Counted from the first letter of the stretch, positions 10,801-29,606 are shown. The stretch is 64,000 nt of DNA from Escherichia coli (GCF_036507355.1 NZ_AP027877.1); one strand, 5' to 3'. The notes: a model not told the origin generated them from the sequence alone. Numbers and translations: made by a program.

Positions 10801-11724
10801 GTGTTTTTTGAATATATAACAGGTAAAACTATGTCCTGGCTTAATTCTGTCTTATTGGCGCTTACCTCGGTGCAACCTTATATGGTACCGGCAACCGTTA
10901 TCGGCCTCGTCAGTTTTGCATTCCTCTGTTTTATTTTCTTTTATTTTTTTAGAGCAGTTAAAATTATTAACGGCCTGAAAAAATATACTCAGTCAATTAA
11001 TGGCATCGAAAATAATGAGCCTGGTAATCAGCTTCAGCATCTGCAAAGTTTGTTTGTACAGCCTGAGTTAAAGCACGCCTGGAATGAATTCGAAGAATCG
11101 TTGCACTCACAATATGAACTGGAGGACGGGGAAGAGAAAATCGTCCGTATTAGGGCTACTGCACCGAGCGCCAGTTTCTTCTCGGAGCAACAACTGGTCG
11201 ATATTCCGCTGAACACCGAATTTTTCAAACACCTGCCCGGTATTCTGACCGGTGTGGGGATTATCGGTACCTTCTACGGTCTGATGATTGGTCTCAACCA
11301 CTTCGACCCCAGCACACCAGAGCAGGTCTCCAGCAGCGTCAATAATCTGCTTCGCGATGTGCTGTACGCCTTCCTCGGTTCAGCATTTGCGATTACGTTC
11401 TCTATCCTTATCACCTGGCTGGAGAAATTCTGTCTGGCGAAATGCTACAAATATCTGGAAAAATTCACCGCAGCTCTCGACGCCCTCTATGACAGCGGTG
11501 TTGGCGAGGAGTACCTTGCCTCACTGGTAAAATCCAGTAATGAAAGCGCGACCCAGGCACGCCATCTGAAAGAGAGCCTGGTTACCGATTTACGCGATAT
11601 GCTGCTGCATCTGGCCAACAGCCAGAAAGTGGAAAACGAGCGGCTAGCGACCACCCTCAGCACCACCTATCGCGAAACAGGACAACAGTTTGCCGAGCAA
11701 GTCAGCGGTGCGATTGAAAACTGA
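10801..11724 (+). CDS. MotA/TolQ/ExbB-family proton-channel (stator-like) membrane protein (about 297-307 aa)
   Basis: Three predicted TM helices with TolQ/ExbB-like spacing. TM2 carries the family signature (LPGILTGVGIIGTFYG, compare TolQ GLFGTVWG). The stop codon TGA is formed by the first three bases of IS629, so the 3' end is disrupted or altered by the IS. Confidence 0.55.
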   Translation: MFFEYITGKTMSWLNSVLLALTSVQPYMVPATVIGLVSFAFLCFIFFYFFRAVKIINGLKKYTQSINGIENNEPGNQLQHLQSLFVQPELKHAWNEFEESLHSQYELEDGEEKIVRIRATAPSASFFSEQQLVDIPLNTEFFKHLPGILTGVGIIGTFYGLMIGLNHFDPSTPEQVSSSVNNLLRDVLYAFLGSAFAITFSILITWLEKFCLAKCYKYLEKFTAALDALYDSGVGEEYLASLVKSSNESATQARHLKESLVTDLRDMLLHLANSQKVENERLATTLSTTYRETGQQFAEQVSGAIEN

Positions 11725-11775
11725 ACCGCCCCGGGAATCCTGGAGACTAAACTTCCTGAGAAAGAGGTAAACAGG

Positions 11776-12102
11776 ATGACTAAAAATACTCGTTTTTCCC
11801 CCGAAGTCCGTCAACGGGCAGTCCGTATGGTTCTGGAAAGTCAGAGCGAATATGACTCACAATGGGCGACAATTTGTTCCATTGCTCCAAAGATTGGCTG
11901 TACGCCGGAGACTCTGCGTGTCTGGGTTCGCCAGCATGAGCGGGATACCGGGGGCGGTGATGGAGGGCTCACCACCGCTGAACGTCAGCGTCTGAAAGAG
12001 CTGGAACGTGAAAATCGTGAACTGCGCCGCAGTAACGATATCCTTCGCCAGGCTTCCGCTTATTTTGCGAAGGCGGAGTTCGACCGCCTCTGGAAAAAAT
12101 GA
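11776..12102 (+). CDS. IS629 OrfA (helix-turn-helix transposase N-terminal protein)
   Basis: [23 protein letters not shown]...; IS3-family OrfA with a leucine zipper near the C-terminus. Confidence 0.85.
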
Positions 12103-12989
12103 TGCCACTGCTGGATAAGCTGCGTGAGCAGTACGGGGTCGGACCGCTATGCAGCGAACTGCATATTGCCCCGTCAACGTATTACCACTGTCAGCAACAG
12201 CGACATCATCCGGATAAACGCAGTGCCCGTGCGCAGCGCGATGACTGGCTGAAGAAAGAGATACAGCGCGTATACGATGAAAATCACAAGGTATACGGTG
12301 TGCGTAAAGTCTGGCGTCAGTTGTTACGGGAAGGTATCAGAGTGGCCAGATGCACTGTGGCACGTCTCATGGCGGTTATGGGACTTGCCGGTGTTCTCCG
12401 GGGTAAAAAGGTCCGTACGACCATCAGCCGGAAAGCCGTTGCCGCAGGCGACCGCGTAAACCGTCAGTTCGTGGCAGAACGACCTGACCAGCTGTGGGTG
12501 GCTGATTTTACTTACGCCAGCACATGGCGGGGCTTCGTCTATGTGGCGTTCATCATTGATGTGTTTGCCGGATACATCGTGGGGTGGCGGGTCTCATCGT
12601 CCATGGAAACGACATTCGTGCTGGATGCACTGGAGCAGGCGTTATGGGCCCGTCGACCGTCCGGCACGGTCCATCACAGTGATAAAGGTTCTCAGTATGT
12701 ATCGCTGGCCTACACACAGCGGCTTAAGGAAGCCGGATTACTGGCATCAACAGGAAGTACAGGCGACTCGTATGACAACGCGATGGCGGAGAGCATCAAT
12801 GGTCTTTACAAAGCGGAGGTAATACACCGTAAGAGCTGGAAAAACCGTGCAGAAGTGGAACTGGCCACACTCACGTGGGTGGACTGGTATAACAATCGAC
12901 GATTGCTGGAAAGGCTGGGCCATACTCCTCCGGCAGAAGCAGAAAAAGCTTATTATGCTTCCATCGGAAACGATGATCTGGCAGCCTGA
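12099..12989 (+). CDS. IS629 OrfB (DDE transposase; expressed by -1 frameshift with OrfA)
   Basis: IS3-family integrase/DDE core (WVADFTY... HSDKGSQY... DNAMAES); overlaps orfA in the -1 frame. Confidence 0.85.
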
Positions 12990-13153
12990 GTTCACAGATA
13001 AAACACTCTCCAGGAAACCCGGGGCGGTTCACACTATTATTTCTCCGGTTAGCCTACAACAACGTTTTTATCAGAAGCTCAACCAGCAGATAATAGAAAT
13101 GAAAAACCCATTGCAGTGAAATTATTTTTGACAACATACAGCAGGAGTAAAAA

Positions 13154-13999
13154 ATGTTACGTGGTTCAGAAAGAAAAGAAGCATTAGCCAGTCTCAAAAG
13201 TGCAACTAACCGTTATGAAGTACAGGCTAAAGACACCCAGGATGAGATCACTGCCCTCTTTCTGTTACGCCAGAAATGCAGTAAGGACCTGATTGCCCGT
13301 GGTGAAAATTTTGTTAATCGACTGGCGAATACACCGAAAGAGTTTGATAAATCCTGGAGCGAATTGAAAGCGGAAATCGCTGAATTTGATAACGTGGTGG
13401 AAAAACTGGAAGAAGAATACCGCGCATCACATATTGGTAAAGGAACGGCTGCTGCGGGGGTTGCCGTTGGGGCGGGGGTCGCCGCATTTGCCCCTACGGC
13501 TGCGCTGGCGGTCGCAACAACTTTTGGTACAGCATCCACGGGTACCGCTATTGCTACGTTAAGCGGAGCTGCCGCAACAAATGCAGCCCTGGCATGGCTC
13601 GGCGGCGGCGCACTGGCTGCGGGTGGCGGTGGCATGTCAGCAGGAAGCGCACTACTGGCTCTGGCGGGTCCAATAGGCTGGGGGATTGGTGCTGTAGGCA
13701 TCGCTGGCGGAACCTTACTAGCCCGTCGCAAAAACGGTAAAATCATTGATGAAGCACAACAGGAAGAGCGCCAGGTTCGCGCAAAAACCAGCGAACTTCG
13801 CGTGATGGAACGTGGTGCGCAAGAACTCAAGATGCTCACATCCGAGCACTATCATGGTACTGAAAGCATTATTGATGTGCTGGAAAAGGCTGCGCCTCAA
13901 GACTATTGCCAGTTTAATACCCATCAGAAAGATCAATTAGGGGCATTGATTAACCATATCAATGCATTATCAAAACTGATCAACAAGAAAATCCAGTAA
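13154..13999 (+). CDS. Hypothetical protein with central Gly/Ala-rich glycine-zipper membrane segment (281 aa)
   Basis: Helical N- and C-terminal regions flank a Gly/Ala-rich hydrophobic stretch of about 100 aa (GTAAAGVAVGAGVAAF ... GWGIGAVGIAGG). Its stop overlaps the next start (TAATG). Confidence 0.5.
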   Translation: MLRGSERKEALASLKSATNRYEVQAKDTQDEITALFLLRQKCSKDLIARGENFVNRLANTPKEFDKSWSELKAEIAEFDNVVEKLEEEYRASHIGKGTAAAGVAVGAGVAAFAPTAALAVATTFGTASTGTAIATLSGAAATNAALAWLGGGALAAGGGGMSAGSALLALAGPIGWGIGAVGIAGGTLLARRKNGKIIDEAQQEERQVRAKTSELRVMERGAQELKMLTSEHYHGTESIIDVLEKAAPQDYCQFNTHQKDQLGALINHINALSKLINKKIQ

Positions 14000-15444
14000 T
14001 GAGCATTAACCATAATACAGTTGGCGACCAGCTTATCGGCAGCGCGGTTAACGCCATTAATCAGACCCGCATTGATAATGAACTGTTAAAACTATCGCAG
14101 CAGGATCGTGCATTTGAGTTGGCTGGCGAACAAATGCAAAAGGTGCGTGATTTCATCGCGTCACCGGGTAACATCCTGGGCTCAATGAGCACCAAACACG
14201 GTGAAATTGCTGAGCAGGTAGAAGTTGGCGTGCGCAATGCTCGCCAGGCAATAGAAGAAAGGGTTCAGGATGCCTCTGATCTTAGCGCCACGTTTGACGG
14301 AGTGGGTCGAACCGCTCCGGCGGATTATATGATAGATGGCGTTGACGTGCAGTCAAAGTTTATCAACGGAGTTAATAATAACCTGAACCATGTCCTTCAG
14401 CACATGGAAACCTATCCCAATTTCACCCGGGGAGAATCCTTTTACCATATCCCCAAAGACTCCTGGCAAACGATTCAGGATGTTATTGATGGGAAGCCGG
14501 TGGAGGGCTTGAGCGAAAAAACAATACAGGCTATCAGGGATAAAGTTGCAGAAATTGAAAGTACAACGGGAAGATCCTTTAATGATGTCGTGCGTCCTGG
14601 AGTTTCTGATTACAAAGATGTTCAGTGGGGAAAAATTGACGAAACTCTTGATAAACATGATCAGGAATTAGCGGAACAGAACGAGGCAAAAAAAGCAGAA
14701 ATTATTGACGATCACCAACCCTCCCTAAGTGAAGGCATGCGTGCAACCGCAATGGGAGCCGCTTTCGGTGGAACCTTTGCTCTTGTAACAGGTATATATA
14801 GCAAATACCGTGACGGTAAAAATATATTTCGTGGAGATTTCAACAGACAGGACTGGCAGGATGTCGGCTTAGATACATTGAAAGGTGCCGCTATTGGCGG
14901 TGTATCCGCCGGAGCAATTTATACCCTGACCAATTATGCCTCTCTGGGAGCACCGTTCGCCAGCGCGCTGGTCACTGCCGCTAAAGGTGTAAGCAATCTT
15001 GCTCTCTCCTATCAGCGCGGTGAGATTAATGCTGATGAATTTACCGATCTTGGCCTTATCATCTGCGCGGAATCGGCCATCGTTGGCGCAATGTCTGTCG
15101 CAGGTCAGGCAATCATCCCTGTGCCTGTTTTGGGGGCATTGGTTGGTTCTATCTCAGGGAAGTTTATGGTTACCGTAGCTAAAAATCTGGACAGTAAAGC
15201 ACGCCAATTGCTGGCGAAAAAAATGGAGCAATTTACATGTCGCTTAAGTGAGATTGAGCAGAAAGCACTCAACCGAATTTTGAACGAGTTCGCGGCGCTG
15301 GGTGAGCTTACCGCAGCTGCATTTAGCGTGGAAAACAATCGCCGGTTGCTGGAAGCAAGCATCACGCTTGCCCAAGCCCACGGTGTTGAAGAGGCGAAGA
15401 TAATCAAAAATGCGGATGATCTTGACACATTTATGATGGCGTAG
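13999..15444 (+). CDS. Hypothetical protein with C-terminal glycine-zipper membrane segments (481 aa)
   Basis: Soluble N-terminal region of about 240 aa, then several Gly/Ala-rich hydrophobic segments (GAAFGGTFALVTG, GAAIGGVSAGAIYT, AIVGAMSVAGQAII). Translationally coupled to the upstream gene. Confidence 0.5.
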   Translation: MSINHNTVGDQLIGSAVNAINQTRIDNELLKLSQQDRAFELAGEQMQKVRDFIASPGNILGSMSTKHGEIAEQVEVGVRNARQAIEERVQDASDLSATFDGVGRTAPADYMIDGVDVQSKFINGVNNNLNHVLQHMETYPNFTRGESFYHIPKDSWQTIQDVIDGKPVEGLSEKTIQAIRDKVAEIESTTGRSFNDVVRPGVSDYKDVQWGKIDETLDKHDQELAEQNEAKKAEIIDDHQPSLSEGMRATAMGAAFGGTFALVTGIYSKYRDGKNIFRGDFNRQDWQDVGLDTLKGAAIGGVSAGAIYTLTNYASLGAPFASALVTAAKGVSNLALSYQRGEINADEFTDLGLIICAESAIVGAMSVAGQAIIPVPVLGALVGSISGKFMVTVAKNLDSKARQLLAKKMEQFTCRLSEIEQKALNRILNEFAALGELTAAAFSVENNRRLLEASITLAQAHGVEEAKIIKNADDLDTFMMA

Positions 15445-15480
15445 CACTCGAATAAAAATTACAGCAAGGATAAAACCACA

Positions 15481-18003
15481 ATGCTACAGATAATTGGTGC
15501 GTTAATTTTACTGGTAATCGGTTTTGTTATTATAAAAGCGTTGTTTAAGGCATCTCTCAATATTCTAGGTGTGATATTAGGATTGGGTGCATTGATTGTT
15601 GCAGGCCCACCTTTATTGGCGGGCTATATTGTAGAGCGCGTAACCTATGCGCTTCACTCACGTTGGCTGCTGGGTGTACCTCTTGCCATAGCAGGAATGG
15701 TGATTAGCTTTATGTGGGGACTTGATGGTAAACATATTGCCTACGAAGCCTATTCATTTGATTCAATGAAGTTTATTTTAACCGCTGCATTTGCCAGTGG
15801 CCTGCTTGCAGTACCTGTACAAACCAAGGCTATTCTACAAAACGGGCTTATACCAGCCGATATCAATGCCAAACTTAAAGAGTATTATTGCTGTTTTTAT
15901 ACGTCTTACTTTTTGATGGCCTGCTCTGCGGCTACACCGTTTATAGCCTGGCAATATAATATCTCATCTTCACTGATGTGGTGGACAGGATTGCTATACT
16001 GGATAGCAGCCTTACTGACACAGTTCTATGCGGCAAACCAAATTCAGGAACTCAAGAAGTTAACTAATGCCATCAATACAGGGTTAAATGAGCAAAAAGC
16101 GATCAATAACCAACTTTGGCTGACGGAACTAAAAGAAGGAAGTAACCTCTCAGCAGAATTCGTAGAGACTATCTATCTTAAGTTGGTCTCACAGCATATT
16201 TTTCAGGGCGATACTCGAGAGCAGGATCTGGCTGGTGAAAACTGGCTTTTAAATGATGCCTGGTATGAAAGAAAGATGGCTGAATTTAATGAGCAGTTAA
16301 ACAGTAAAATTGTACACTCATCAGATGAGCTAAGAAGCCTTTTTGGTAATAGGCTGAATTTACCCTCTGCTGCGAATGATGATCTCCTGAACCGTTATCT
16401 TGATGGTGGGAACTATTATTCTTTTTCGGATGGTCGAAAATTTGTCTCGTTTCACTATGTCGACGAGCTTTGTACCTGCACTTCATGCGGTTTGAGCGAG
16501 ATTAAAAACGCAAAACACCAGGACGGTTGTGGGAGCCAGGAATGGTATTGCTCTGATATTTGCCGGGAAACGGAAAAACTCTGCATTGAAATTCACAAGC
16601 GACCACAGGCTGAATTTATTTCCAGTGCAGCAACAAACGGTCTGATTCTCATGACGCTCCCGGAGGCCTGGAATACTAACGAAAAAATGTTTGCAGTGGG
16701 AGGACAAGGACATGGTTTTGCAGCCGAACGGGGAAATCATCTTACTGACAAAATCCAACTAAAAGATGCACATATTCTCGGTGATGATAATGCGAAAAAT
16801 GGTGCAGACAGGCTGGTTAACGGTTCAGAGATTCAGACCAAATACTGTGCAACCGCTGCACGTAGCGTCGGTGCTGGTTTTGACGGACAAAACGGTAATT
16901 ATCGCTATTATGACAGTAACGGAACCCCAATGCAGTTAGAGGTTCCGAAAGACCAGTATTCGAAAGCGCTTGAAACGATGGAGAACAAAATTCGCGATGG
17001 CAAAGTCCCCGGCGTTACCGATCCTGCAGAAGCCACAAAACTTGTACGTCAGGGACACCTGACTTATAGCCAGGCACAAAACATTACTAAGTTTGGCACG
17101 TTCGAATCTATCACTTACGACATTGCGGAAGGATCTATCATCAGCCTCGCAGCTGGAGGTATCAGCTTCGGTCTGACAGCTTCTATTTTCTACCTCAATA
17201 CCGGCGATCGTAAGGCTGCGTTGCAAACGGCAGCAATACAGGCAGGTAAAACATTTACCCGCACACTGACAGTTTATGTGACGGTACAGCAATTACACCG
17301 TATCAGTGCCGTTCAGGGGTTACTTAAAAATATTGATTTTGCCGCTGCCAGCCCGACAGTTCGTAATGCGCTTCAACAGGGAGTCGGAGCTAACAATCTC
17401 AACTCCCTTAACAAGATGATGCGTGGCACACTGGTTACCTCTTTCGCACTGGTCGCCGTGACCACTGGTCCGGATATGATCAAAATGGTGCGAGGTCGTA
17501 TTTCTGGGGCACAGTTTATAAAAAATCTGGCAGTTACTTCATCTGGTGTGGCTGGGGGGGCAATTGGTTCTATTGCTGGCGGAATGATGCTTAGTCCATT
17601 AGGTCCTTTCGGTGCTTTAGCAGGACGCGCAGCTGGTGGCTTGTTAGGCGGTATGATTGCCACAGCGATTTCCAAAAAAATAGCGGGTGCACTGGTTGAA
17701 GACGACCGAGTAAAAGTGCTGGCTCTCATCCAGGAACAGGTTACATGGCTTGCAACAAGTTTCATGCTTACAGCACACGAACTTGAAAACCTGAACGCGA
17801 ATCTGGCAACAGTAATTGACCAAAAAACCCTGGAGGTTATCTTCGCCGCAAAAGAGCAAGACCGAGCAACGGCCAATATGCTGATTAAACCACTTGTAGT
17901 AAGTGTGGTTAAGCAACGACCGGTCCTGAGCTATGAACAATCGCAAATCTGCGAAATGGTCGATCAGCTTGATACATCGGTTTCATTATCTGCTGTTGCA
18001 TAA
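15481..18003 (+). CDS. Hypothetical large membrane protein (840 aa): N-terminal multi-TM domain, Cys-rich zinc-ribbon-like segment, C-terminal glycine-zipper region
   Basis: About six N-terminal hydrophobic helices; Cys cluster CTCTSCGLSEIKNAKHQDGCGSQEWYCSDICRETEKLC; C-terminal Gly-rich segment SSGVAGGAIGSIAGGMMLSPLGPFGALAGRAAGGLLGG. Confidence 0.5.
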   Translation: MLQIIGALILLVIGFVIIKALFKASLNILGVILGLGALIVAGPPLLAGYIVERVTYALHSRWLLGVPLAIAGMVISFMWGLDGKHIAYEAYSFDSMKFILTAAFASGLLAVPVQTKAILQNGLIPADINAKLKEYYCCFYTSYFLMACSAATPFIAWQYNISSSLMWWTGLLYWIAALLTQFYAANQIQELKKLTNAINTGLNEQKAINNQLWLTELKEGSNLSAEFVETIYLKLVSQHIFQGDTREQDLAGENWLLNDAWYERKMAEFNEQLNSKIVHSSDELRSLFGNRLNLPSAANDDLLNRYLDGGNYYSFSDGRKFVSFHYVDELCTCTSCGLSEIKNAKHQDGCGSQEWYCSDICRETEKLCIEIHKRPQAEFISSAATNGLILMTLPEAWNTNEKMFAVGGQGHGFAAERGNHLTDKIQLKDAHILGDDNAKNGADRLVNGSEIQTKYCATAARSVGAGFDGQNGNYRYYDSNGTPMQLEVPKDQYSKALETMENKIRDGKVPGVTDPAEATKLVRQGHLTYSQAQNITKFGTFESITYDIAEGSIISLAAGGISFGLTASIFYLNTGDRKAALQTAAIQAGKTFTRTLTVYVTVQQLHRISAVQGLLKNIDFAAASPTVRNALQQGVGANNLNSLNKMMRGTLVTSFALVAVTTGPDMIKMVRGRISGAQFIKNLAVTSSGVAGGAIGSIAGGMMLSPLGPFGALAGRAAGGLLGGMIATAISKKIAGALVEDDRVKVLALIQEQVTWLATSFMLTAHELENLNANLATVIDQKTLEVIFAAKEQDRATANMLIKPLVVSVVKQRPVLSYEQSQICEMVDQLDTSVSLSAVA

Positions 18004-18166: not shown

Positions 18167-18186
18167 TAAGGGGGCATTTGCCCCCT
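18167..18186. terminator. Candidate bidirectional rho-independent terminator between the 840-aa gene and arsC
   Basis: Perfect 8-bp GC-rich stem AAGGGGGC/GCCCCCTT with a 4-nt loop, flanked by T-rich sequence on both strands. Confidence 0.5.
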
Positions 18187-18192
18187 TCATCA

Positions 18193-18618
18193 TTATTTCA
18201 GTCGTTTACCTGCATCATCAACGACTTTCTCGCCGTCTTCCTTAGCAAATGCGCCTTTTTGCGCATCCGGAAGAATATCCAGTACCACTTCGGAAGGACG
18301 GCACAGACGCGTTCCCAATGGTGTCGCCACAATCGGGCGATTAATCAGGATCGGATACTGAAGCATAAAATCGACTAACTGATCGTCAGTAAACTTATCT
18401 TCCGCAAGCCCCAGTTCTTCATAAGGTTCAACATTTTTACGCAATAGTGCCCGTACCGTTATCCCCATATCTGCGATGAGTTTGAGCACCTCATCGCGTG
18501 AAGGTGGATTTTCAAGGTAAAGAATAACGTTCGGTTCAGTACCGCTGTTGCGGATCATCTCCAGCGTATTACGCGACGTGCCGCAGGCTGGGTTGTGATA
18601 AATAGTGATGTTGCTCAT
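18193..18618 (-). CDS. arsC: Arsenate reductase ArsC (141 aa)
   Basis: MSNITIYHNPACGTSRNTLEMIR... with the catalytic Cys in the HNPACGTSR motif; recognised as enterobacterial ArsC. Confidence 0.85.
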   Translation of the reverse strand: MSNITIYHNPACGTSRNTLEMIRNSGTEPNVILYLENPPSRDEVLKLIADMGITVRALLRKNVEPYEELGLAEDKFTDDQLVDFMLQYPILINRPIVATPLGTRLCRPSEVVLDILPDAQKGAFAKEDGEKVVDDAGKRLK

Positions 18619-18630
18619 ATCAATATCTCA

Positions 18631-18840
18631 TTACAAAGTGAAAGAGAGACGTAGCGCCAGCGCGGCCAGCGTTACAAACAGCACAGGCAGAGTCATGATG
18701 ATCCCGGTGCGGAAATAGTATCCCCAGGTGATGGTCATGCTCTTCTGTGAAAAGACATGCAGCCAGAGTAGCGTTGCCAGGCTACCAATAGGTGTAATTT
18801 TCGGCCCCAGATCGCAGCCAATCACGTTGGCATAAATCAT
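18631..18840 (-). pseudogene. arsB: arsB 3' fragment (C-terminal about 69 codons of the arsenite efflux pump)
   Basis: Encodes only the hydrophobic C-terminal end of ArsB immediately upstream of arsC. No arsB 5' region or arsR is present, so the ars operon is truncated here. Confidence 0.7.
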
Positions 18841-23040: not shown

Positions 23041-23769
23041 TTATTGAAATTGCTCAAATATACCATGCAACCCAATAAATTTTATTTTTAGTGCAGGATC
23101 ATGCCTTAGAACAGTCTCAAGTGAGTTCCGCTCATAAATTATTGATTGTGCTTGTATTGAGCCGTTCCATGAAGGCAAAAGCAGTAAAGCAGATGTTTCC
23201 AAATCAATACCCCACCAATCGTTAACATAGCAATTTAAAAAATCAACAAGAGCCTTAATCGCAATAAAAGCATCTTTTTCGGTATATGTTTCAGGATCGA
23301 GGGATATACCTGATATATTACTTTTAGCTTGCTCGGAATTAATATTAGACTGGTGTTGATAAGCAATTTTTCCTTCACCCGGTTTAGTTTCTATTGTATC
23401 AGTGAAAATTTTAATCTTAGGATGCACCAATGCATTTCGTTGTGCTATTAATTCTTTTATTATTTGTGTTTGAGTGGTTCCACGAGGTAAAGACATGTCT
23501 TTATGCCATTGAAGAGTATAGTCAAATTTATCAAGTGAAGAGAACCTGTCAATTTGATCTTTTAACTTTTGCGTTATTTCTATAGAAGATAAAAATGAGT
23601 TAGCTGCAGCCTCAATAGCGTAGTTAATTGAAAGTACACTTGATTTGGCAAGTGTTTTTTTGATGTGTGATTTTTTTGTTGCAGCTGATAATTCATAAAG
23701 AGTTATTGCATCAGAAAAAAGCTCAAAAAAGCTGTTCTTGGTTATTTCAACTTTTCTTTTCACACGCAA
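23041..23769 (-). CDS. Hypothetical protein (242 aa), third gene of the uncharacterised operon
   Basis: ORF in a low-GC region 84 bp downstream of the 504-aa gene on the same strand; no recognisable motifs. Confidence 0.45.
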   Translation of the reverse strand: MRVKRKVEITKNSFFELFSDAITLYELSAATKKSHIKKTLAKSSVLSINYAIEAAANSFLSSIEITQKLKDQIDRFSSLDKFDYTLQWHKDMSLPRGTTQTQIIKELIAQRNALVHPKIKIFTDTIETKPGEGKIAYQHQSNINSEQAKSNISGISLDPETYTEKDAFIAIKALVDFLNCYVNDWWGIDLETSALLLLPSWNGSIQAQSIIYERNSLETVLRHDPALKIKFIGLHGIFEQFQ

Positions 23770-23852
23770 CCCTCTGCATAAAAAATAAAATCATATAGAC
23801 AGAATACAATTTCCTATAATCTTTACATTCTACTAATTGTGGATATAAATGG

Positions 23853-25367
23853 CTATCGAGAATAAGAACTGGGTTTAGGAAAACCACCTCTGACGACGAC
23901 AACAACAATTGCAACTTGAGATTGACCTGTTGGATGAGTGAATACTTCAATATCATCCTCTATTACTCCCACCGGCGCTGATTTTGACGTTGATTCCAGA
24001 ACAACCAAAATACCGATACGCTTACCTAATCCAATGGCATAAGCTGCTGTTTGATCGAAATATTTTTGAAAATCCTTGGGAAAAAGAACCTTATTATTTT
24101 CAACTTTTAGTTCTATCGGAATGTCTTCAAATGTGAGATCCGTTATCCCGCCAGCAGCCTCTGGATGGCCTTGTAATTTCTCGCCAATCTCATTCCTACT
24201 TCTAAGCATTTCGGCTATTTTACGCTGAAATTTTTGCTCTGATGTGCCAGCAATAAATAAACTAGCTTTAAGAGCTTGTGCTGCAACATTTCCTAAGCCG
24301 CCAAGTATAACCATTGTATTAGCAATGTCATCTGAGTGTAATCCAGGGAAAGCTCGTAATATGTTACGAATTTTTATAAGATGCCTATCGACGTTTGAAA
24401 ATCCAGTTAATGGAGCTTGAGCGGAATCACTCCCTTCAAGTAGTAAGCGCCTATGTCCTACGATAGCAATATTTTGGCAATTACTTAAATTGTCAAACTC
24501 GGCAGCATATAGGAATTCGTAAGGTCTCGAGCCAAATGAATTTGCCACTTCCAAGACGACACGACCGATCCCCTTCAGTGTGAAGGGGCCTTCCCCCTCT
24601 GGTTTCTCAAATCTAAAATCAGGCAACCAGTCTCGCTCACGAGCATCAATTGTCACTGGCTTTAATGAGAGGAAATTTGCACTTTTTGGCCAATTTGAAA
24701 CCCTGACCTCTATGTTAAGGTCATAAGCCGTACCCGGCTTAAGATAATTCCATTGCTGAGCTGGTTCCCCATCAATATCAAACTTTAGAAATGCAACTGT
24801 CGATTCTTGTGTTTTATTCTCTTTTGTCTCTTTACTAGATATTCCTTGCCTAATCTCCTCAATATTTTTATCGCGAAGATTTGCGAATAAGAGTAGTGGC
24901 AATGACCAGCTTGTTAACTGGTCTTGTATTTGTTTTAATGAATCTAATTTACTGATTGAACGGACTTGCTCTATAAATTCATTAAATTGTTTGTTCTCCG
25001 AGAGACTCGTCGTCATGTCGATCTCTGATGCTTTTAATTGTGCTGAATTTAAAAACCTTTGAGCATCAGTCTCAGCATTACGTATAGCATGTTTCCACTC
25101 AGCTAGAGTTACAAATATAGTCATTGCTATATAATATGCACGATATTGATCTTCAACATATCCCTGACCGAGCTCATCGAGCGTTTCATTGAGCTTTTGA
25201 CACGCTTCTTTAAGTTTCACCAAGTCATTCGGAATGGACTTGAGTGCACCATCCAACGCTGCTGCAATCTCAACCCTCGGAGAAAAAGCTTGGCGGAAAA
25301 TCTCGAAATTTGGCTCGTTCTTCATATTCTTTCTCCAACTCAGCCGTAAGACCATTCCATTTTTCAA
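23853..25367 (-). CDS. Hypothetical protein (about 490-504 aa) with possible C-terminal PD-(D/E)xK nuclease-like motif
   Basis: C-terminal segment GGITDLTFEDIPIELKVENNK fits a D-x8-E-x-K pattern. The start is uncertain: the first ATG overlaps the upstream gene by about 98 bp. Confidence 0.45.
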   Translation of the reverse strand: MKNGMVLRLSWRKNMKNEPNFEIFRQAFSPRVEIAAALDGALKSIPNDLVKLKEACQKLNETLDELGQGYVEDQYRAYYIAMTIFVTLAEWKHAIRNAETDAQRFLNSAQLKASEIDMTTSLSENKQFNEFIEQVRSISKLDSLKQIQDQLTSWSLPLLLFANLRDKNIEEIRQGISSKETKENKTQESTVAFLKFDIDGEPAQQWNYLKPGTAYDLNIEVRVSNWPKSANFLSLKPVTIDARERDWLPDFRFEKPEGEGPFTLKGIGRVVLEVANSFGSRPYEFLYAAEFDNLSNCQNIAIVGHRRLLLEGSDSAQAPLTGFSNVDRHLIKIRNILRAFPGLHSDDIANTMVILGGLGNVAAQALKASLFIAGTSEQKFQRKIAEMLRSRNEIGEKLQGHPEAAGGITDLTFEDIPIELKVENNKVLFPKDFQKYFDQTAAYAIGLGKRIGILVVLESTSKSAPVGVIEDDIEVFTHPTGQSQVAIVVVVVRGGFPKPSSYSR

Positions 25368-27843
25368 TTAAGTCATTATAGGGTTCGCAAACACTTATGG
25401 CATGTTCAATGCTAGCTGCTTCTGTAACTAAAGCAGCCTTAAGTTTCCATTGTGTATTTCTTTCATCATTTGGAATTTCTTCCAGTAGTTCCTTTAAACA
25501 AACATTTGCAGTTACGTTATCACCACACTTGCTTAACGCAGCCACGTACACTAATGCTTCAATAAATTGTTGAGGTTTAAATGGTTTCAGAGCATTGAAT
25601 GCTTTTTGGAGATCGTCTTTACAATTTCGAAGCTCATTATGTGGCGCTCTTAATATCACTGAGATGCAGTCATCAATAGAAATACTGCGAGTATACTCAT
25701 CCTGAATTGCTTTGAGTGCGACTTTGACAAAACCGGGAATATCATCAAAATGAAAACGCAATCGATTGATAGCATCATAAAGTGCACTTCCTTCTAAAAT
25801 TAATAATATATTAGAAAGAAGCAATCCAATTTTCCCCTTTCTCTCTTCATCTGATAAGCAAAGAGAAGAAAAAACGTCAATGCATTCTACAATGAAATTA
25901 TCTTTTTTATCTTGTTGAATATAATAGCAAATTAGATTCCATAGCCGGGATCTCACAAGTCCCCGTTTCTCCTCAGGAAAAGATCTACGGCTCAAAGCGC
26001 GAACAGCATACTGATGCACCATAACATATTGATCTAATAGCAAGACTGAATATGCTTCGAAGAATAAATCTGGGAAATTCTTCACTAAATCATAGGGAAC
26101 ATTTTCCCACGCTTGTACGGCACGTGCTCGAATCAATGTACTCTCATCCATAAGAGCACGATACCAATCGGAGAGCACTAGTGTTAGGCTGTCAATACCA
26201 GTTAATAACTTAGAAACATGGGCAATCATGTTCCCACGCATTTGAGTTTGTTCTTCTGGTAAGCTTCTATAGAGATGAAGAAAATCATCGATTCCTTCAC
26301 TCCCTCTAGATTTAGCTCCAATCGCAGCCCATTCAATCAATGCACCCTGTAAGCCATCAATAGCATTACGCTTATTACTTTTATCTAAATGATCTAGAAA
26401 ACTCTCATTTATTTCTATGATTTTTTCTTTATTCAACGCCTCAAATTTCTCGCTTAGCGTTGCAGCCGCTCCGATCAAATCGTCAAAATTATCAACTGCA
26501 AGCTCAGCAAATTCGTCCCAAGAGTGTCTAAAGAATTGTCCTGCATCATCCATGCTATCCTCTGGATTTTCCACAGCAGCCCAGAGCAAACGCCTAAAAG
26601 CTATTTTTTGTGTCTTTCCTGTTTTACTTTTTTTTCTATAGTTATTTCGCAGTACAGATCTGTAAGCTCTATTGGCCTCATGTCTCCCAATATCATCTTT
26701 GTCAGCAAGATAGGATTGAATAACTTTATCGCTTTCATCGGGAAATCTATCTAAGTATTTCGTAGCAGCCTCCCGAAGAAAGAAAAGAATGCTGCTATCT
26801 CTCCGCTCCTCCGGGAGTAGAGTCCGTCGACGCATCAGCTTAGCAAATATACTTCTAATATGTCTTAGAAGCAGCTCATCATCATCCGATGCAATAATTA
26901 TCTCAATAGCAAATTGAAATTTTCCCCGGTGAGTATCTTTTATGTATTCATCAACAACATCACAGATATCAGCTTGTCTTTTTTTAAAAAGTGACTGAAT
27001 GGGGCCTTTATTAAGTACTTTTCGCTCAAATGTGCCAATCATCATTCCAGGAGGAGATTCAACAGCCATTCTAACAAAGTGGTAAAGGACTTTTAAGAAA
27101 TCATCTTCAGATAGATTCTCTGCTTCCAAGAGGATTGCTTCTATAGCTGGTGGACAATATTCGAAGTTGTTTATTAAATATACTGAAATTGCCAGTTTTT
27201 CCGCTTGTGATAATTCAGTTCTTATTAAAGCTTTTGCTGCTGGCATTGAATATGGTAATTTCTCATGTAACACTGCAGGCAACAAGTGTTCAATTATTTT
27301 ACTTGTAAATGTCTCAGGTGCCAGATTAGCAAGTTGTTCCAAACGGGGATCGTTGTTCTCTATATCCTCTTGATCGAGTTCATCAAGCAAATCAAGCACA
27401 AACGTTTCTTCTAGAGTAAGTGAAAGACGTAATACTGCTCGTTCTTGTTGTCTATTGAGCTGCTTCTGCTTTCTCTGCCTTTCTTCTTCTTTGCGAGCCA
27501 AATTTCGTTCTTCGGCAGATTTTTCTCTTGGGCCTACAAACTCTAAAATATTGGGAAATCCCACCGGAACCCGTTGATTACAATGTTTACAGTTCTGTTT
27601 ATAGAAGCTGTAAACCGAGTCTTCCAGCAGCCAGCTAAGCATTGAACTTTGCTTAACAAATTTGCATTGAACTCCCATGTGACCAATGGGTAACCCTGTT
27701 TCAGCCTCAATCATGCCTCTCCCCTCTGATCGAATGAATTCAGAGTGAGAACACCAGTTACTAAGTAGGTGTACAGCACGGAGATTTCGTTGACCAGCTT
27801 CGATTGCCTCTTCAAATCTTTTTTTATCTTCAAAATCATCCAT
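25270..27843 (-). CDS. Hypothetical large protein (857 aa) with N-terminal Cys/His cluster; first gene of the operon
   Basis: N-terminal WCSHSEF...GHMGVQCKF...CKHCNQ could be a zinc-binding module; the rest is predicted helical with charged linkers. Preceded by an AT-rich 400-bp region. Confidence 0.5.
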   Translation of the reverse strand: MDDFEDKKRFEEAIEAGQRNLRAVHLLSNWCSHSEFIRSEGRGMIEAETGLPIGHMGVQCKFVKQSSMLSWLLEDSVYSFYKQNCKHCNQRVPVGFPNILEFVGPREKSAEERNLARKEEERQRKQKQLNRQQERAVLRLSLTLEETFVLDLLDELDQEDIENNDPRLEQLANLAPETFTSKIIEHLLPAVLHEKLPYSMPAAKALIRTELSQAEKLAISVYLINNFEYCPPAIEAILLEAENLSEDDFLKVLYHFVRMAVESPPGMMIGTFERKVLNKGPIQSLFKKRQADICDVVDEYIKDTHRGKFQFAIEIIIASDDDELLLRHIRSIFAKLMRRRTLLPEERRDSSILFFLREAATKYLDRFPDESDKVIQSYLADKDDIGRHEANRAYRSVLRNNYRKKSKTGKTQKIAFRRLLWAAVENPEDSMDDAGQFFRHSWDEFAELAVDNFDDLIGAAATLSEKFEALNKEKIIEINESFLDHLDKSNKRNAIDGLQGALIEWAAIGAKSRGSEGIDDFLHLYRSLPEEQTQMRGNMIAHVSKLLTGIDSLTLVLSDWYRALMDESTLIRARAVQAWENVPYDLVKNFPDLFFEAYSVLLLDQYVMVHQYAVRALSRRSFPEEKRGLVRSRLWNLICYYIQQDKKDNFIVECIDVFSSLCLSDEERKGKIGLLLSNILLILEGSALYDAINRLRFHFDDIPGFVKVALKAIQDEYTRSISIDDCISVILRAPHNELRNCKDDLQKAFNALKPFKPQQFIEALVYVAALSKCGDNVTANVCLKELLEEIPNDERNTQWKLKAALVTEAASIEHAISVCEPYNDLIEKWNGLTAELEKEYEERAKFRDFPPSFFSEG

Positions 27844-28246
27844 TTAGATAACACCCTTATAAGGAACATGTACTCATCTAAAATGCTGTTACCGGATTAT
27901 TATACCTAAAACAATGAATGCTGTGTATTATGAAATGTGATATAAGTCAATTAGTTACATATAAAAACCAACTCACATCCAAAAGGATAGTATTTCGAGG
28001 TTTGTAGCATCATTAAATGTGAACTTATTTATCGCCCCCTCAAGTTAACTAATAAATAAGTTATAATTTACATATACTTCTGGAATTTAGAAACCTTATA
28101 TCTAATAGTTGAGTAAGTTAATAATCAACTTGAGTGTGATTCATAAAAAAAATAATTATTATTTTCAGCCCCTCCATTATGGAGGAGCAATAATAGTATA
28201 GTTTTCCTGTATTCCTAACGATCCAGTTAGGCTTAGAGAAATCTAA

Positions 28247-29443
28247 TTATGAAGCACTCCTGAGAGCAACCCTTCCAACTTTATCAATATAATCCGCATA
28301 CCACTGCATCATCTCTCTCCTGCCTTCCAAATACAGCGCATGGTTGTACGTCCCGCGAATCGCATTCTTATCGACATGCGCAAGCTGGGTTTCAATCCAT
28401 GCGGTATTGAACCCTTCCTCATGCAAAATCGTACTCATCGTGTGGCGGAAACCATGCCCCGTTACCTTCCCCGTGTACCCAATCCGCTTAAACACCTGAT
28501 TAATACTCGCTTCGCTCATTGTTTTGCGGGGATCATTCCTCCCAGGAAACACCAGAGGATATTGCCCAGACATCACTTTGAGCTGCTGTACGATCTCCAG
28601 CGCTTGGGTAGAGAGGGGCACCAGGTGAGGCCGTTTCATCTTCATGCGCTCTGCAGGTATTTCCCACACCGCTTTTTCAAGATCAAACTCACTCCAGAAA
28701 GCACCTCGAAGCTCACCGGTGCGAACCCCCGTAAGGATCAGCAAACGTGCGGCAAGAACAACCAGCGGGCTGCCTGTATAGCCAGAAAGAGCTTTAAAGA
28801 AATCTGGTAACTCCTCAACGGTAAGGAAGGGATAATGCTTCGATTCATGCCCTGACATCGCGCTGGTTAGATCCGCAGCCGGATTGTATTCCGCACGACC
28901 GGTAACTATGGCGTAGCGAAAGACTTCGCTGCAGCGCTGGCGAACTTTCTTGGCCTTCTCTGTCGCACCACGGCTTTCCATTCGACGCAGTACATTCAAC
29001 AGAACAAGAGGCTTAATTTCATTGACTGGCTGCTGACCGATATAGGGAAAAATATCTTTATTTAAAGCTTCGATAATGTCCGATGCATACCCTTCTGACC
29101 ATCTGCTCACCTTCGTACCGTGCCACTCAAGCGCCACAGACTGGAACGTATTATTGAGCTGCACATCACGAACCAGCTTTTCTTCTTTCTTGGCAAACGA
29201 TGGATCGATACCCTCGGCCAGCTTTTTCTTGGCTTCATCGCGTAGTGCCCTCGCTTGAGCAAGGGACACTGCCGGATAAACGCCAAAAGCCATACGCTTC
29301 TCTTTTCCATTGAAGCGATATTTCATTCGCCAGTATCGAGAACCAGAGGGAACGACTTCAAGATACAAACCAGCACCATCTGCCAGCTTATAGGCTTTCT
29401 CTCTGGGTTTAGCTGCATCTACCTGTCGCGCATTTAGCTTCAT
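28247..29443 (-). CDS. int: P4-type tyrosine integrase (about 398 aa)
   Basis: N-terminal MKLNARQVDAAKP...LYLEVVPSGSRYWRMKYRF typical of P4-family integrases; C-terminal catalytic region with HGFRHT and a downstream Tyr; lies beside a tRNA fragment. Confidence 0.8.
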   Translation of the reverse strand: MKLNARQVDAAKPREKAYKLADGAGLYLEVVPSGSRYWRMKYRFNGKEKRMAFGVYPAVSLAQARALRDEAKKKLAEGIDPSFAKKEEKLVRDVQLNNTFQSVALEWHGTKVSRWSEGYASDIIEALNKDIFPYIGQQPVNEIKPLVLLNVLRRMESRGATEKAKKVRQRCSEVFRYAIVTGRAEYNPAADLTSAMSGHESKHYPFLTVEELPDFFKALSGYTGSPLVVLAARLLILTGVRTGELRGAFWSEFDLEKAVWEIPAERMKMKRPHLVPLSTQALEIVQQLKVMSGQYPLVFPGRNDPRKTMSEASINQVFKRIGYTGKVTGHGFRHTMSTILHEEGFNTAWIETQLAHVDKNAIRGTYNHALYLEGRREMMQWYADYIDKVGRVALRSAS

Positions 29444-29606
29444 TGGGGGCATCTCCCTGGACCGAACACAGAATGCCCCCACTTATGCCCCCAACTGTAA
29501 CTTGATTCCGGTTGAGTCCAGTTGATAACAGGAGATAAAATACGGGCTAGAAACCGCAGTATACGGGCTTTTAGTTGATTTCGGTAGACTTGGGAAGAGT
29601 TTGAAA

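Follow-up and report, generated by a model that had tools for sequence, protein, structure and literature searches.

A window of 64,000 nucleotides from Escherichia coli (NZ_AP027877.1, assembly GCF_036507355.1) contains three consecutive plus-strand genes, labelled A, B and C here, all of which carry the RefSeq label "hypothetical protein". Our analysis reveals that this interval comprises two neighbouring modules, carried as cargo by a mobile defence island and each built around glycine-zipper helices: genes A and B correspond to the defence candidate PDC-M09, and gene C encodes a full-length member of the YeeR family. The open reading frames have exactly the coordinates and the strand given in a preliminary description of this DNA, which had been made from the sequence alone:

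13154-13999, plus strand: gene A, PDC-M09A, 281 amino acids (PADLOC PDLC04407, E 2.4e-120)
13999-15444, plus strand: gene B, PDC-M09B, 481 amino acids (PADLOC PDLC04409, E 2.9e-214)
15481-18003, plus strand: gene C, full-length YeeR-family protein, 840 amino acids, 959 homologues

A and B match the PDC-M09 hidden Markov models (HMMs) end to end, with the PADLOC model of PDC-M09A covering residues 1-280 of the 281 residues of A, and they lie next to each other on the same strand within a defence island. Payne et al. 2024 (bioRxiv 10.1101/2024.01.29.577857) identified PDC-M09 by their guilt-by-embedding screen, in which it is cassette CAS_00055, has 380 RefSeq instances and is listed among 145 untested candidates. 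The window differs from the usual cassette in its third gene, C, and in the loss of the usual WYL regulator; PDC-M09 itself is a prediction without assigned domains or mechanism. Over the C-terminal 45-62% of its length, the C protein shares 63-74% identity with YeeR-type proteins of E. coli, and the sources of several of its homologues call them "Inner membrane protein YeeR". The precomputed family PF27347 (YeeR_C) is assigned to the 99%-identity cluster representative of C and to more than 100 homologues. YeeR of strain K-12 (the CP4-44 "inner membrane protein") is a truncated copy, whereas C is full-length; and in the loci examined, classic yeeR- or C-type genes stand beside irmA or flu without A and B, whereas here C follows PDC-M09.

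Since the A/B pair has already been catalogued as a candidate and C falls into a named family of unassigned function, the locus is not categorically new. New are the paralogy of B and YeeR by way of an undescribed α/β domain and the near-invariance of the Gly/Ala core of A across phyla, to which the models add a ClyA-like build of A and a Tim17/OEP16-like fold of B as predictions.

Two separable modules and their genomic setting

The preliminary description had treated A, B and C as one operon of three, a view that the distribution of the genes contradicts, since A with B and C on its own are found apart in other genomes. The A-B pair occurs without C on a Vibrio parahaemolyticus integrative and conjugative element (ICE) beside Gabija and Abi_2, in Aeromonas islands, in Klebsiella islands adjoining an SNF2/PLD cluster, in Enterobacter soli together with a WYL regulator, and on one Lactococcus and one Bacillus plasmid. 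The pair is conserved over a range that runs from Proteobacteria to Firmicutes, its carriers being islands, ICEs and plasmids, and its two genes usually overlap or abut. Homologues of B are furthermore carried between the tra genes of an SXT-like ICE and on 65 plasmids; of these plasmids, 30 are conjugative and 46 come from Klebsiella. Gene C stands alone in Pseudomonas, in Aliarcobacter beside a type I restriction-modification (RM) system, among housekeeping genes on an enterobacterial metagenome contig, on a small island adjoining a PDDEXK_4 gene, and in Serratia, where a homologue of 85% identity lies next to irmA in the absence of A and B. The order WYL-A-B-C recurs elsewhere, with C at 83% identity, yet the modules also separate, and their linkage is therefore facultative. 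Upstream of C in Aliarcobacter lies a gene for 283 residues, which we examined for kinship with A and found to be unrelated to it.

A profile of the domain shared by B and C, searched against 1.84 billion representative sequences, retrieved 1112 proteins; the best 150 of these are essentially only of the B type (about 480 residues) or the C type (about 830 residues), and therefore offer no informative fusion partner. A C-type protein of 651 residues is also encoded by the temperate Oscillospirales phage PV036458 (locus L021, 4401-6353). It has the α/β domain and the Gly-zipper region of C combined with a different soluble N-terminus, and its gene directly follows the endolysin gene, a typical moron position.

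The island is tRNA-associated and integrative, and carries a type I RM system upstream, a type I Zorya system, PDC-M09 with C, a Dsr1-type SIR2 gene, Olokun and an integrase. Homologous loci likewise have defence neighbours, namely Gabija, Abi_2, the SNF2/PLD cluster and MutH/Dcm. The segment 13000-18100 is 100% identical to E. coli strain ET826, and of 5426 complete E. coli genomes just 5 contain the whole locus. Two features flank the three genes:

13029-13119, plus strand: 3' remnant of a WYL-domain regulator gene; homology to strains with an intact WYL gene begins at 13029
18168-18187, both strands: bidirectional GC-rich hairpin terminator, where transcription of A-B-C ends and, from the opposite side, that of the convergent arsC

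The stop codon of A and the ATG of B share one nucleotide (TAATG), an AGGAG ribosome-binding site (RBS) lies 6 nt 5' of the ATG of A, and the 36-nt spacer between B and C contains an AAGGA RBS for C. Between A, B and C, the plus strand has no terminator-like hairpin as strong as that at 18168-18187; the sole other plus-strand match, at 14461-14480 inside B, is weak, with three G-C pairs and a T-poor tail. WYL/WCX regulators are encoded directly 5' of A in other strains (L001, L017 and L022, which represent three lineages). In the window, the rest of the WYL gene has been replaced by an IS3-family element at about 11717-13028.

Just 5' of A, at 13128-13155 and overlapping its start codon, we noted a promoter-like site with a near-consensus -35 element (TTGACA), a 16-nt spacer and AAAAAT; it falls within the former junction of regulator and A, the WYL gene itself being gone here. 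The same IS3-family element cuts zorA1 (10801-11724) at about codon 307. Compared with ET826, the window lacks 7.2 kb with the rest of zorA as well as zorB, zorC and zorD, and Zorya is therefore inactivated.

Conserved Gly/Ala-rich segments and a domain shared by B and C

As the preliminary description stated, Gly/Ala-rich stretches occur in all three proteins. The peptides quoted there are present (GWGIGAVGIAGG at residues 175-186 of A, GAAIGGVSAGAIY at 296-308 of B and AGGAIGSIAGGMM at 691-703 of C), and each protein has long uncharged runs: 97-190 in A (94 residues, 56% Gly plus Ala), 249-268, 296-328 and 359-387 in B, and 551-575 and 682-715 (reaching to about 739) in C, where residues 1-180 additionally hold conventional transmembrane (TM) helices. 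True GxxxGxxxG zippers are found in B (G379/G383/G387) and twice in C (G692/G696/G700 and G711/G715/G719/G723), and nearly all of their glycines are invariant or near-invariant across the families. The content of zipper motifs had been called unusual, which is borne out for C, where 12 strict GxxxG motifs stand against 5.7±2.2 in composition-preserving shuffles, the only clear excess, and by the conservation of the motifs; the counts in A (4 against 2.9±1.5) and B (6 against 3.2±1.6) do not clearly exceed their shuffles. The real signal of these regions is clustering and conservation, the latter far above chance.

This conservation was measured in family alignments of 23-25 diverse homologues per protein. 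Mean identity to the protein of the window is 0.85 for residues 97-190 of A and 0.53-0.54 for its flanks, and the conservation of glycines within the Gly-rich regions reaches 0.93 in A, 0.83 in B and 0.85 in C. The core of A (114-176) shares 84-86% identity with the homologues from the Lactococcus and Bacillus plasmids, as compared with 23-34% in the flanks. Only 27-34% of the identical residues in this core use the same codon, and this randomisation of synonymous codons points to old purifying selection rather than recent transfer.

Could the Gly/Ala stretches nevertheless be disordered low-complexity linkers without specific structure, as the preliminary description had considered? The AlphaFold2 (AF2) models might suggest so, with predicted local distance difference test scores (pLDDT) below 50 over residues 92-188 of A and 364-398 of B, where the underlying alignments are shallow (23-24 sequences). 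The stretches are, on the other hand, the most conserved parts of the proteins, with a core in A that is about 85% identical across phyla despite randomised codons, with invariant glycines, and with a segment in A that is hydrophobic and uncharged over 94 residues. Because of this strong conservation we reject the linker explanation in spite of the low pLDDT in A; the conservation analysis effectively refutes it, and its residual probability is negligible. The conservation, the helices in the AF2 model of B and its four-helix fold matches instead support a reading of the Gly/Ala stretches as membrane segments that form helices and are under constraint.

Whether the three proteins are related to one another is a separate matter. 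Pairwise BLASTP among A, B and C gave no significant match, and HMM-versus-sequence comparisons between the families reached at most 15.6 bits, barely above shuffled decoys, which is why we used profile-profile comparison by hhalign with 100 column-permuted controls. Here, the α/β domains of B and C align with a score of 31.7 (E 1.7e-4, z 6.3), the best of the 100 controls reaching 21.7. The PADLOC HMMs of PDC-M09B also match C (E 5.8e-5 and 6e-4). In the joint alignment of B 56-240 and C 398-548 identity is about 20%, and G68, A71, E72, D109, Q118, K120, P152, D154 and Y205 (B numbering) are invariant in both families, while H67 is nearly so. These sequence comparisons identify B and C as distant paralogues, by way of their soluble α/β domain and not of their Gly-rich parts.

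The Gly-rich regions themselves, compared in the same way, gave a z of 3.5 for A and C, with 1 of the 100 controls attaining the observed score; the values for B and C (z 1.3) and for A and B (z 0.6) do not rise above composition. One hairpin motif, G-x7-G-P-x-G-x3-G, occurs with identical spacing once in A (residues 164-179; 13643-13690) and once in C (700-715). This pattern, which was picked after it had been seen, is found in about 0.3-0.4% of composition-matched shuffles of either region. B has a looser version, AGQAIIPVPVLGALVGSISG, as compared with AGGMMLSPLGPFGALAGRAAG in C. The recurring zipper module of the preliminary description is thus confined to the level of a motif common to A and C, and the proposed paralogy is retained for B and C as whole proteins, demonstrated in their α/β domain, and dropped for A, for which sequence comparison reveals a shared hairpin motif with C and no demonstrable relationship to either protein.

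Predicted architecture of A, B and C

Pfam-A searches with A, B, C and all 72 family members yielded no significant domain, and PDB sequences gave no significant match to A, B, C or the shared domain, whether these were searched as single sequences or as profiles. Pfam produced scattered weak matches to Gly-rich TM families (Romo1, Gly-zipper_Omp, DUF1269, SLATT, DUF3482 and C19orf12). The architecture of gene A was described from composition, conservation and AF2 modelling:

A 97-190 (13442-13723, plus strand): uncharged hydrophobic insert rich in Gly, Ala, Thr and Ser
A 114-176, within the insert: ultra-conserved core, overlapped by the hairpin G164-x7-G172-P173-x-G175-x3-G179
A 4-56, 62-93, 187-246 and 256-275: helices flanking the insert (AF2 pLDDT 75-93)

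In the AF2 model the four long helices pack together, and the insert leaves at one end and is followed by RRKNGK. The model suggests that A is a cytoplasmic four-helix coiled-coil bundle with one or more membrane-embedded hairpins at its tip, which would be, at borderline scores, the general build of α-pore-forming proteins of the ClyA/MakA/XaxA type. NCBIfam XaxA (NF033928) matches A with E 1e-4 and 21.6 bits, the family cut-off being 125. MakA is the best PDB match (E 0.17 by sequence, 0.05 by profile), in an alignment that pairs the helix and the Gly/Ala-rich head of MakA, VAVGVGIFMLVAGVALTVATAG. Foldseek lists AhlB, SmhB, ClyA and AhlC at probabilities of 0.15-0.30 and a TM-score of about 0.27, and returned no match for A at E<0.2. 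As modelled, A would resemble the ClyA-family toxins in a long helical bundle and in a Gly/Ala-rich hydrophobic head hairpin between helices; it differs from them in its smaller size, in an insert of 94 residues compared with about 45, in the lack of a secretion signal and in that it probably acts from inside the producing cell. One could also regard A separately, as a candidate ClyA-like pore-former that would work from inside as an immune executioner.

For B, the AF2 model (mean pLDDT 72) comprises an N-terminal helix, the α/β domain, Gly/Ala-rich helices and C-terminal helices:

B 56-215 (14164-14643, plus strand): predicted cytoplasmic α/β domain common with C (joint alignment, hhalign)
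B 243-394 (14725-15180, plus strand): five Gly/Ala-rich helices (243-271, 283-313, 318-339, 345-370 and 375-394)

The last of these helices holds the invariant zipper G379-x3-G383-x3-G387. The Gly-rich helices are modelled as a four-helix bundle, whose best fold matches, at moderate model confidence, are Tim17, Tim22 and OEP16. The family of Tim17, Tim22, Tim23 and OEP16 (PRAT) is regarded as eukaryote-specific, and its bacterial look-alikes were found by Žárský & Doležal to share just the glycine zipper (PMC5072337). The PRAT motif [GA]x2[FY]x10Rx3Dx6[GAS]Gx3G is present in 0 of 24 B-family, 0 of 25 C-family and 0 of 23 A-family sequences. The Pfam Tim17 model matches none of the 24 B- and 25 C-family members, the only related signal being Romo1 in B at E 0.86. 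The absence of the motif and of any Tim17 match, in which B differs from the PRAT proteins, together with the published survey, speaks for a resemblance at the level of the fold and not for membership. It is very unlikely that the modelled domain of PDC-M09B and YeeR is a true bacterial relative of the import proteins; if it were, the protein-import channels of mitochondria and plastids would owe their core to a prokaryotic source borne on mobile elements. The fold prediction does bear on possible prokaryotic relatives of the Tim17 family, for which the evidence is weak.

The α/β domain of B is modelled in the order α-β-β-β-α-β (helix 66-86, strands 97-99, 110-112 and 115-119, helix 125-138, strand 148-151). 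In this model, E72 lies on α1, D109 at the start of β2 and Q118-x-K120 on β3, so that the E, D and QxK residues of B and C would fall at the catalytic positions of PD-(D/E)xK enzymes, in the D…QxK variant of Mrr. The modelled resemblance to Mrr-type and other PD-(D/E)xK nucleases would extend to this order of elements and these canonical positions; it ends at the profile and fold searches, which give no support, and at the spacing of only 8 residues from D to QxK, so that the activity is putative. No match that supports the assignment of a nuclease was found for the domain in PDB sequences, Pfam, NCBIfam or PADLOC.

C consists of N-terminal TM helices, which are poorly conserved, a helical region, a Cys-rich ribbon, a B-like α/β domain, a Gly-zipper membrane domain and C-terminal helices:

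C 333-368 (16477-16584, plus strand): invariant C333, C336, C357, C361 and C368 in alignment columns (CxSCG…WYCSxxCxxTExxC)
C 398-545 (16672-17115, plus strand): α/β domain homologous to B 56-215 (GHGFAAE, GADRLV, IQTKY, EVPKDQY)
C 546-740 (17116-17700, plus strand): Gly/Ala-rich membrane region with the zippers G692/696/700 and G711/715/719/723

The cysteine pattern, which separates the variable N-terminal half from the conserved α/β domain, is probably a zinc ribbon, and a zinc ribbon would imply that this part of C is cytoplasmic. The membrane region contains the hairpin G700-x7-G708-P709-x-G711-x3-G715. Residues 689-738 have weak Pfam matches to Gly-zipper_Omp (E 0.11) and DUF1269 (E 0.39), SlyB gives a weak match to C (E 1.1), and over the hairpin the profile of C matches the solved phage tape measure protein 9ki1_g with E 0.006, which may be compositional. 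The segments noted for this likeness to tape measure proteins are C 690-705 (17548-17595) and A 164-179. Channels have glycine zippers, as do tape measure proteins and Tde1, a DNase effector of a type VI secretion system that permeabilises membranes (PMC10240207). With such glycine-zipper proteins (clan CL0500 with SlyB/YcfJ; tape measure proteins; Tde1), the proteins described here share GxxxGxxxG helices and the helix-GP-helix hairpin; they differ from them in that lipoprotein signals are absent and in the setting of the zipper, which is part of multi-helix inner-membrane domains joined to a novel α/β domain. Tde1 likewise combines a Gly zipper with a nuclease, but the order of zipper and catalytic-like domain is reversed in B and C.

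Possible functions of the locus

A membrane-acting abortive-infection or exclusion system appears to be the most likely function of the locus, and we put the probability of this interpretation at roughly 40%. It draws on the HMM matches, the conservation of the A-B pair, the defence neighbours, the upstream WYL regulator, the constrained Gly-rich segments, the borderline hits of A to α-pore-formers and the precedents for glycine zippers. A role of the trio as a membrane channel or toxin, as the preliminary description proposed, is plausible from the sequences. We imagine that A and B would be made in a fixed ratio by translational coupling and would rest as an inactive complex in the inner membrane, under the control of a WYL-type repressor. 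The α/β domain of B could then sense a phage-derived cue, as the corresponding domain of C could do on its own, upon which the Gly-zipper helices of A and B might repack into an ion-conducting oligomer. This oligomer would collapse the membrane potential and lead to abortive infection; alternatively, entry of the phage genome could be blocked at the membrane.

Several points weigh against such a system. The literature on PDC-M09 yields no functional study, and there is none for YeeR either; of the other PDC candidates put to trial, roughly one half proved active in some studies and none in others. Since the α/β domain has no detectable relative in solved structures or curated families, its role as a sensor or nuclease is a guess, and every similarity of A to pore-formers stays below significance or family thresholds. 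The low-confidence parts of the AF2 models coincide with the Gly/Ala insert of A and the last zipper helix of B. The locus may moreover be decaying in this strain, as its regulator has been lost and both Zorya and Dsr1 are inactivated here. Finally, homologues of YeeR also form part of the virulence-associated flu-yeeR-irmA operon, which has no defence context (PMC6480617).

This last observation leads to a different function altogether, in which inner-membrane proteins of the YeeR type, together with their B paralogues, would have an accessory role linked to surface or virulence factors, such as those of the Ag43/IrmA operon, or to membrane stress. In pathogenic strains yeeR is co-transcribed with flu and irmA under the regulation of H-NS/Hha (PMC6480617), the C homologue with 85% identity stands beside IrmA without A and B, and another C homologue resides among housekeeping genes. 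The A-B pair, by contrast, was never seen with flu or irmA in the loci examined, where its neighbours are defence genes, and the patchy distribution on mobile genetic elements, with so few E. coli genomes holding the complete locus, fits poorly with such a household task; we consider an envelope role improbable. The same mobile distribution could mean that the genes serve their carriers, either as an addiction-type pair of toxin and regulator or through entry or surface exclusion that benefits the plasmid, ICE or island. The numerous plasmids with B homologues, the position between tra genes in the SXT-like ICE, and CP4-type integrative islands in which B homologues lie beside CbtA/YeeU, RadC and antirestriction genes all agree with this idea. 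These ICE and island sites are, however, known cargo hotspots, occupied here by Gabija, Abi_2, RM and similar systems, a small antitoxin-like partner is missing, and WYL-type regulators are typical of defence cassettes, so that a function in maintenance or exclusion also seems unlikely, if slightly less so than one in the envelope.

The other two alternatives keep the defence function and replace the pore. B and C might be membrane-tethered nucleases whose α/β domain, of the PD-(D/E)xK type and similar to Mrr, cuts phage or plasmid DNA where it enters the cell; the zipper helices would then be only an anchor and oligomerisation device, and A a scaffold or regulator. The invariance of E72, D109 and Q118-x-K120 in both families at catalytic places on the α-β-β-β-α-β core, the cytoplasmic position implied by the Cys ribbon of C, and Tde1 as a precedent for a Gly zipper fused to a DNase argue for this possibility, which we consider unlikely, though the most probable of the alternatives. 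Alternatively, the hairpin (…AG-x7-GP-x-G-x3-G…) could copy the membrane-inserting glycine-zipper segment of phage tape measure proteins, co-assemble with the incoming protein and poison the channel for DNA injection. Tape measure proteins are the best PHROG matches of A (E 6.8e-6, weak), the best PDB sequence match of C is the solved tape measure protein mentioned above, over the same hairpin, and the glycine zippers of these phage proteins have been implicated in channel formation. The similarity is, however, short and compositionally biased, and tblastn of A against 50,697 phage genomes returned nothing at E<=1e-3; such mimicry is purely speculative and, in our estimate, highly unlikely.

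If the proposed abortive-infection or exclusion system exists, PDC-M09 would be an immune system that combines a ClyA-like helical protein with a glycine-zipper membrane protein, both of them unlike the effector of any characterised defence system. The α/β domain moreover ties YeeR, a long-unexplained family of K-12 y-genes, to a family of defence candidates, and thereby offers a first testable hypothesis for it. The 63-residue Gly/Ala/Thr segment of A, near-invariant between E. coli, Lactococcus and Bacillus, suggests an oligomeric assembly in the membrane with tight packing.

Further genes of the island surround the two modules. The minus strand at 18193-18840 carries arsC, which is intact, and a fragment from the 3' end of arsB; both are stranded within the island, run towards C and use the same terminator. 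The Olokun system, which has the Dsr1 pseudogene on one side and the island integrase (28247-29482) on the other, is encoded on the minus strand within 23041-29482, with OloA at 25270-27843 and OloB at 23853-25367 (PADLOC E 7.5e-77 and 5.5e-58, respectively). Beside it, at 23041-23769 on the minus strand, lies a gene for a 242-residue protein of unassigned family.

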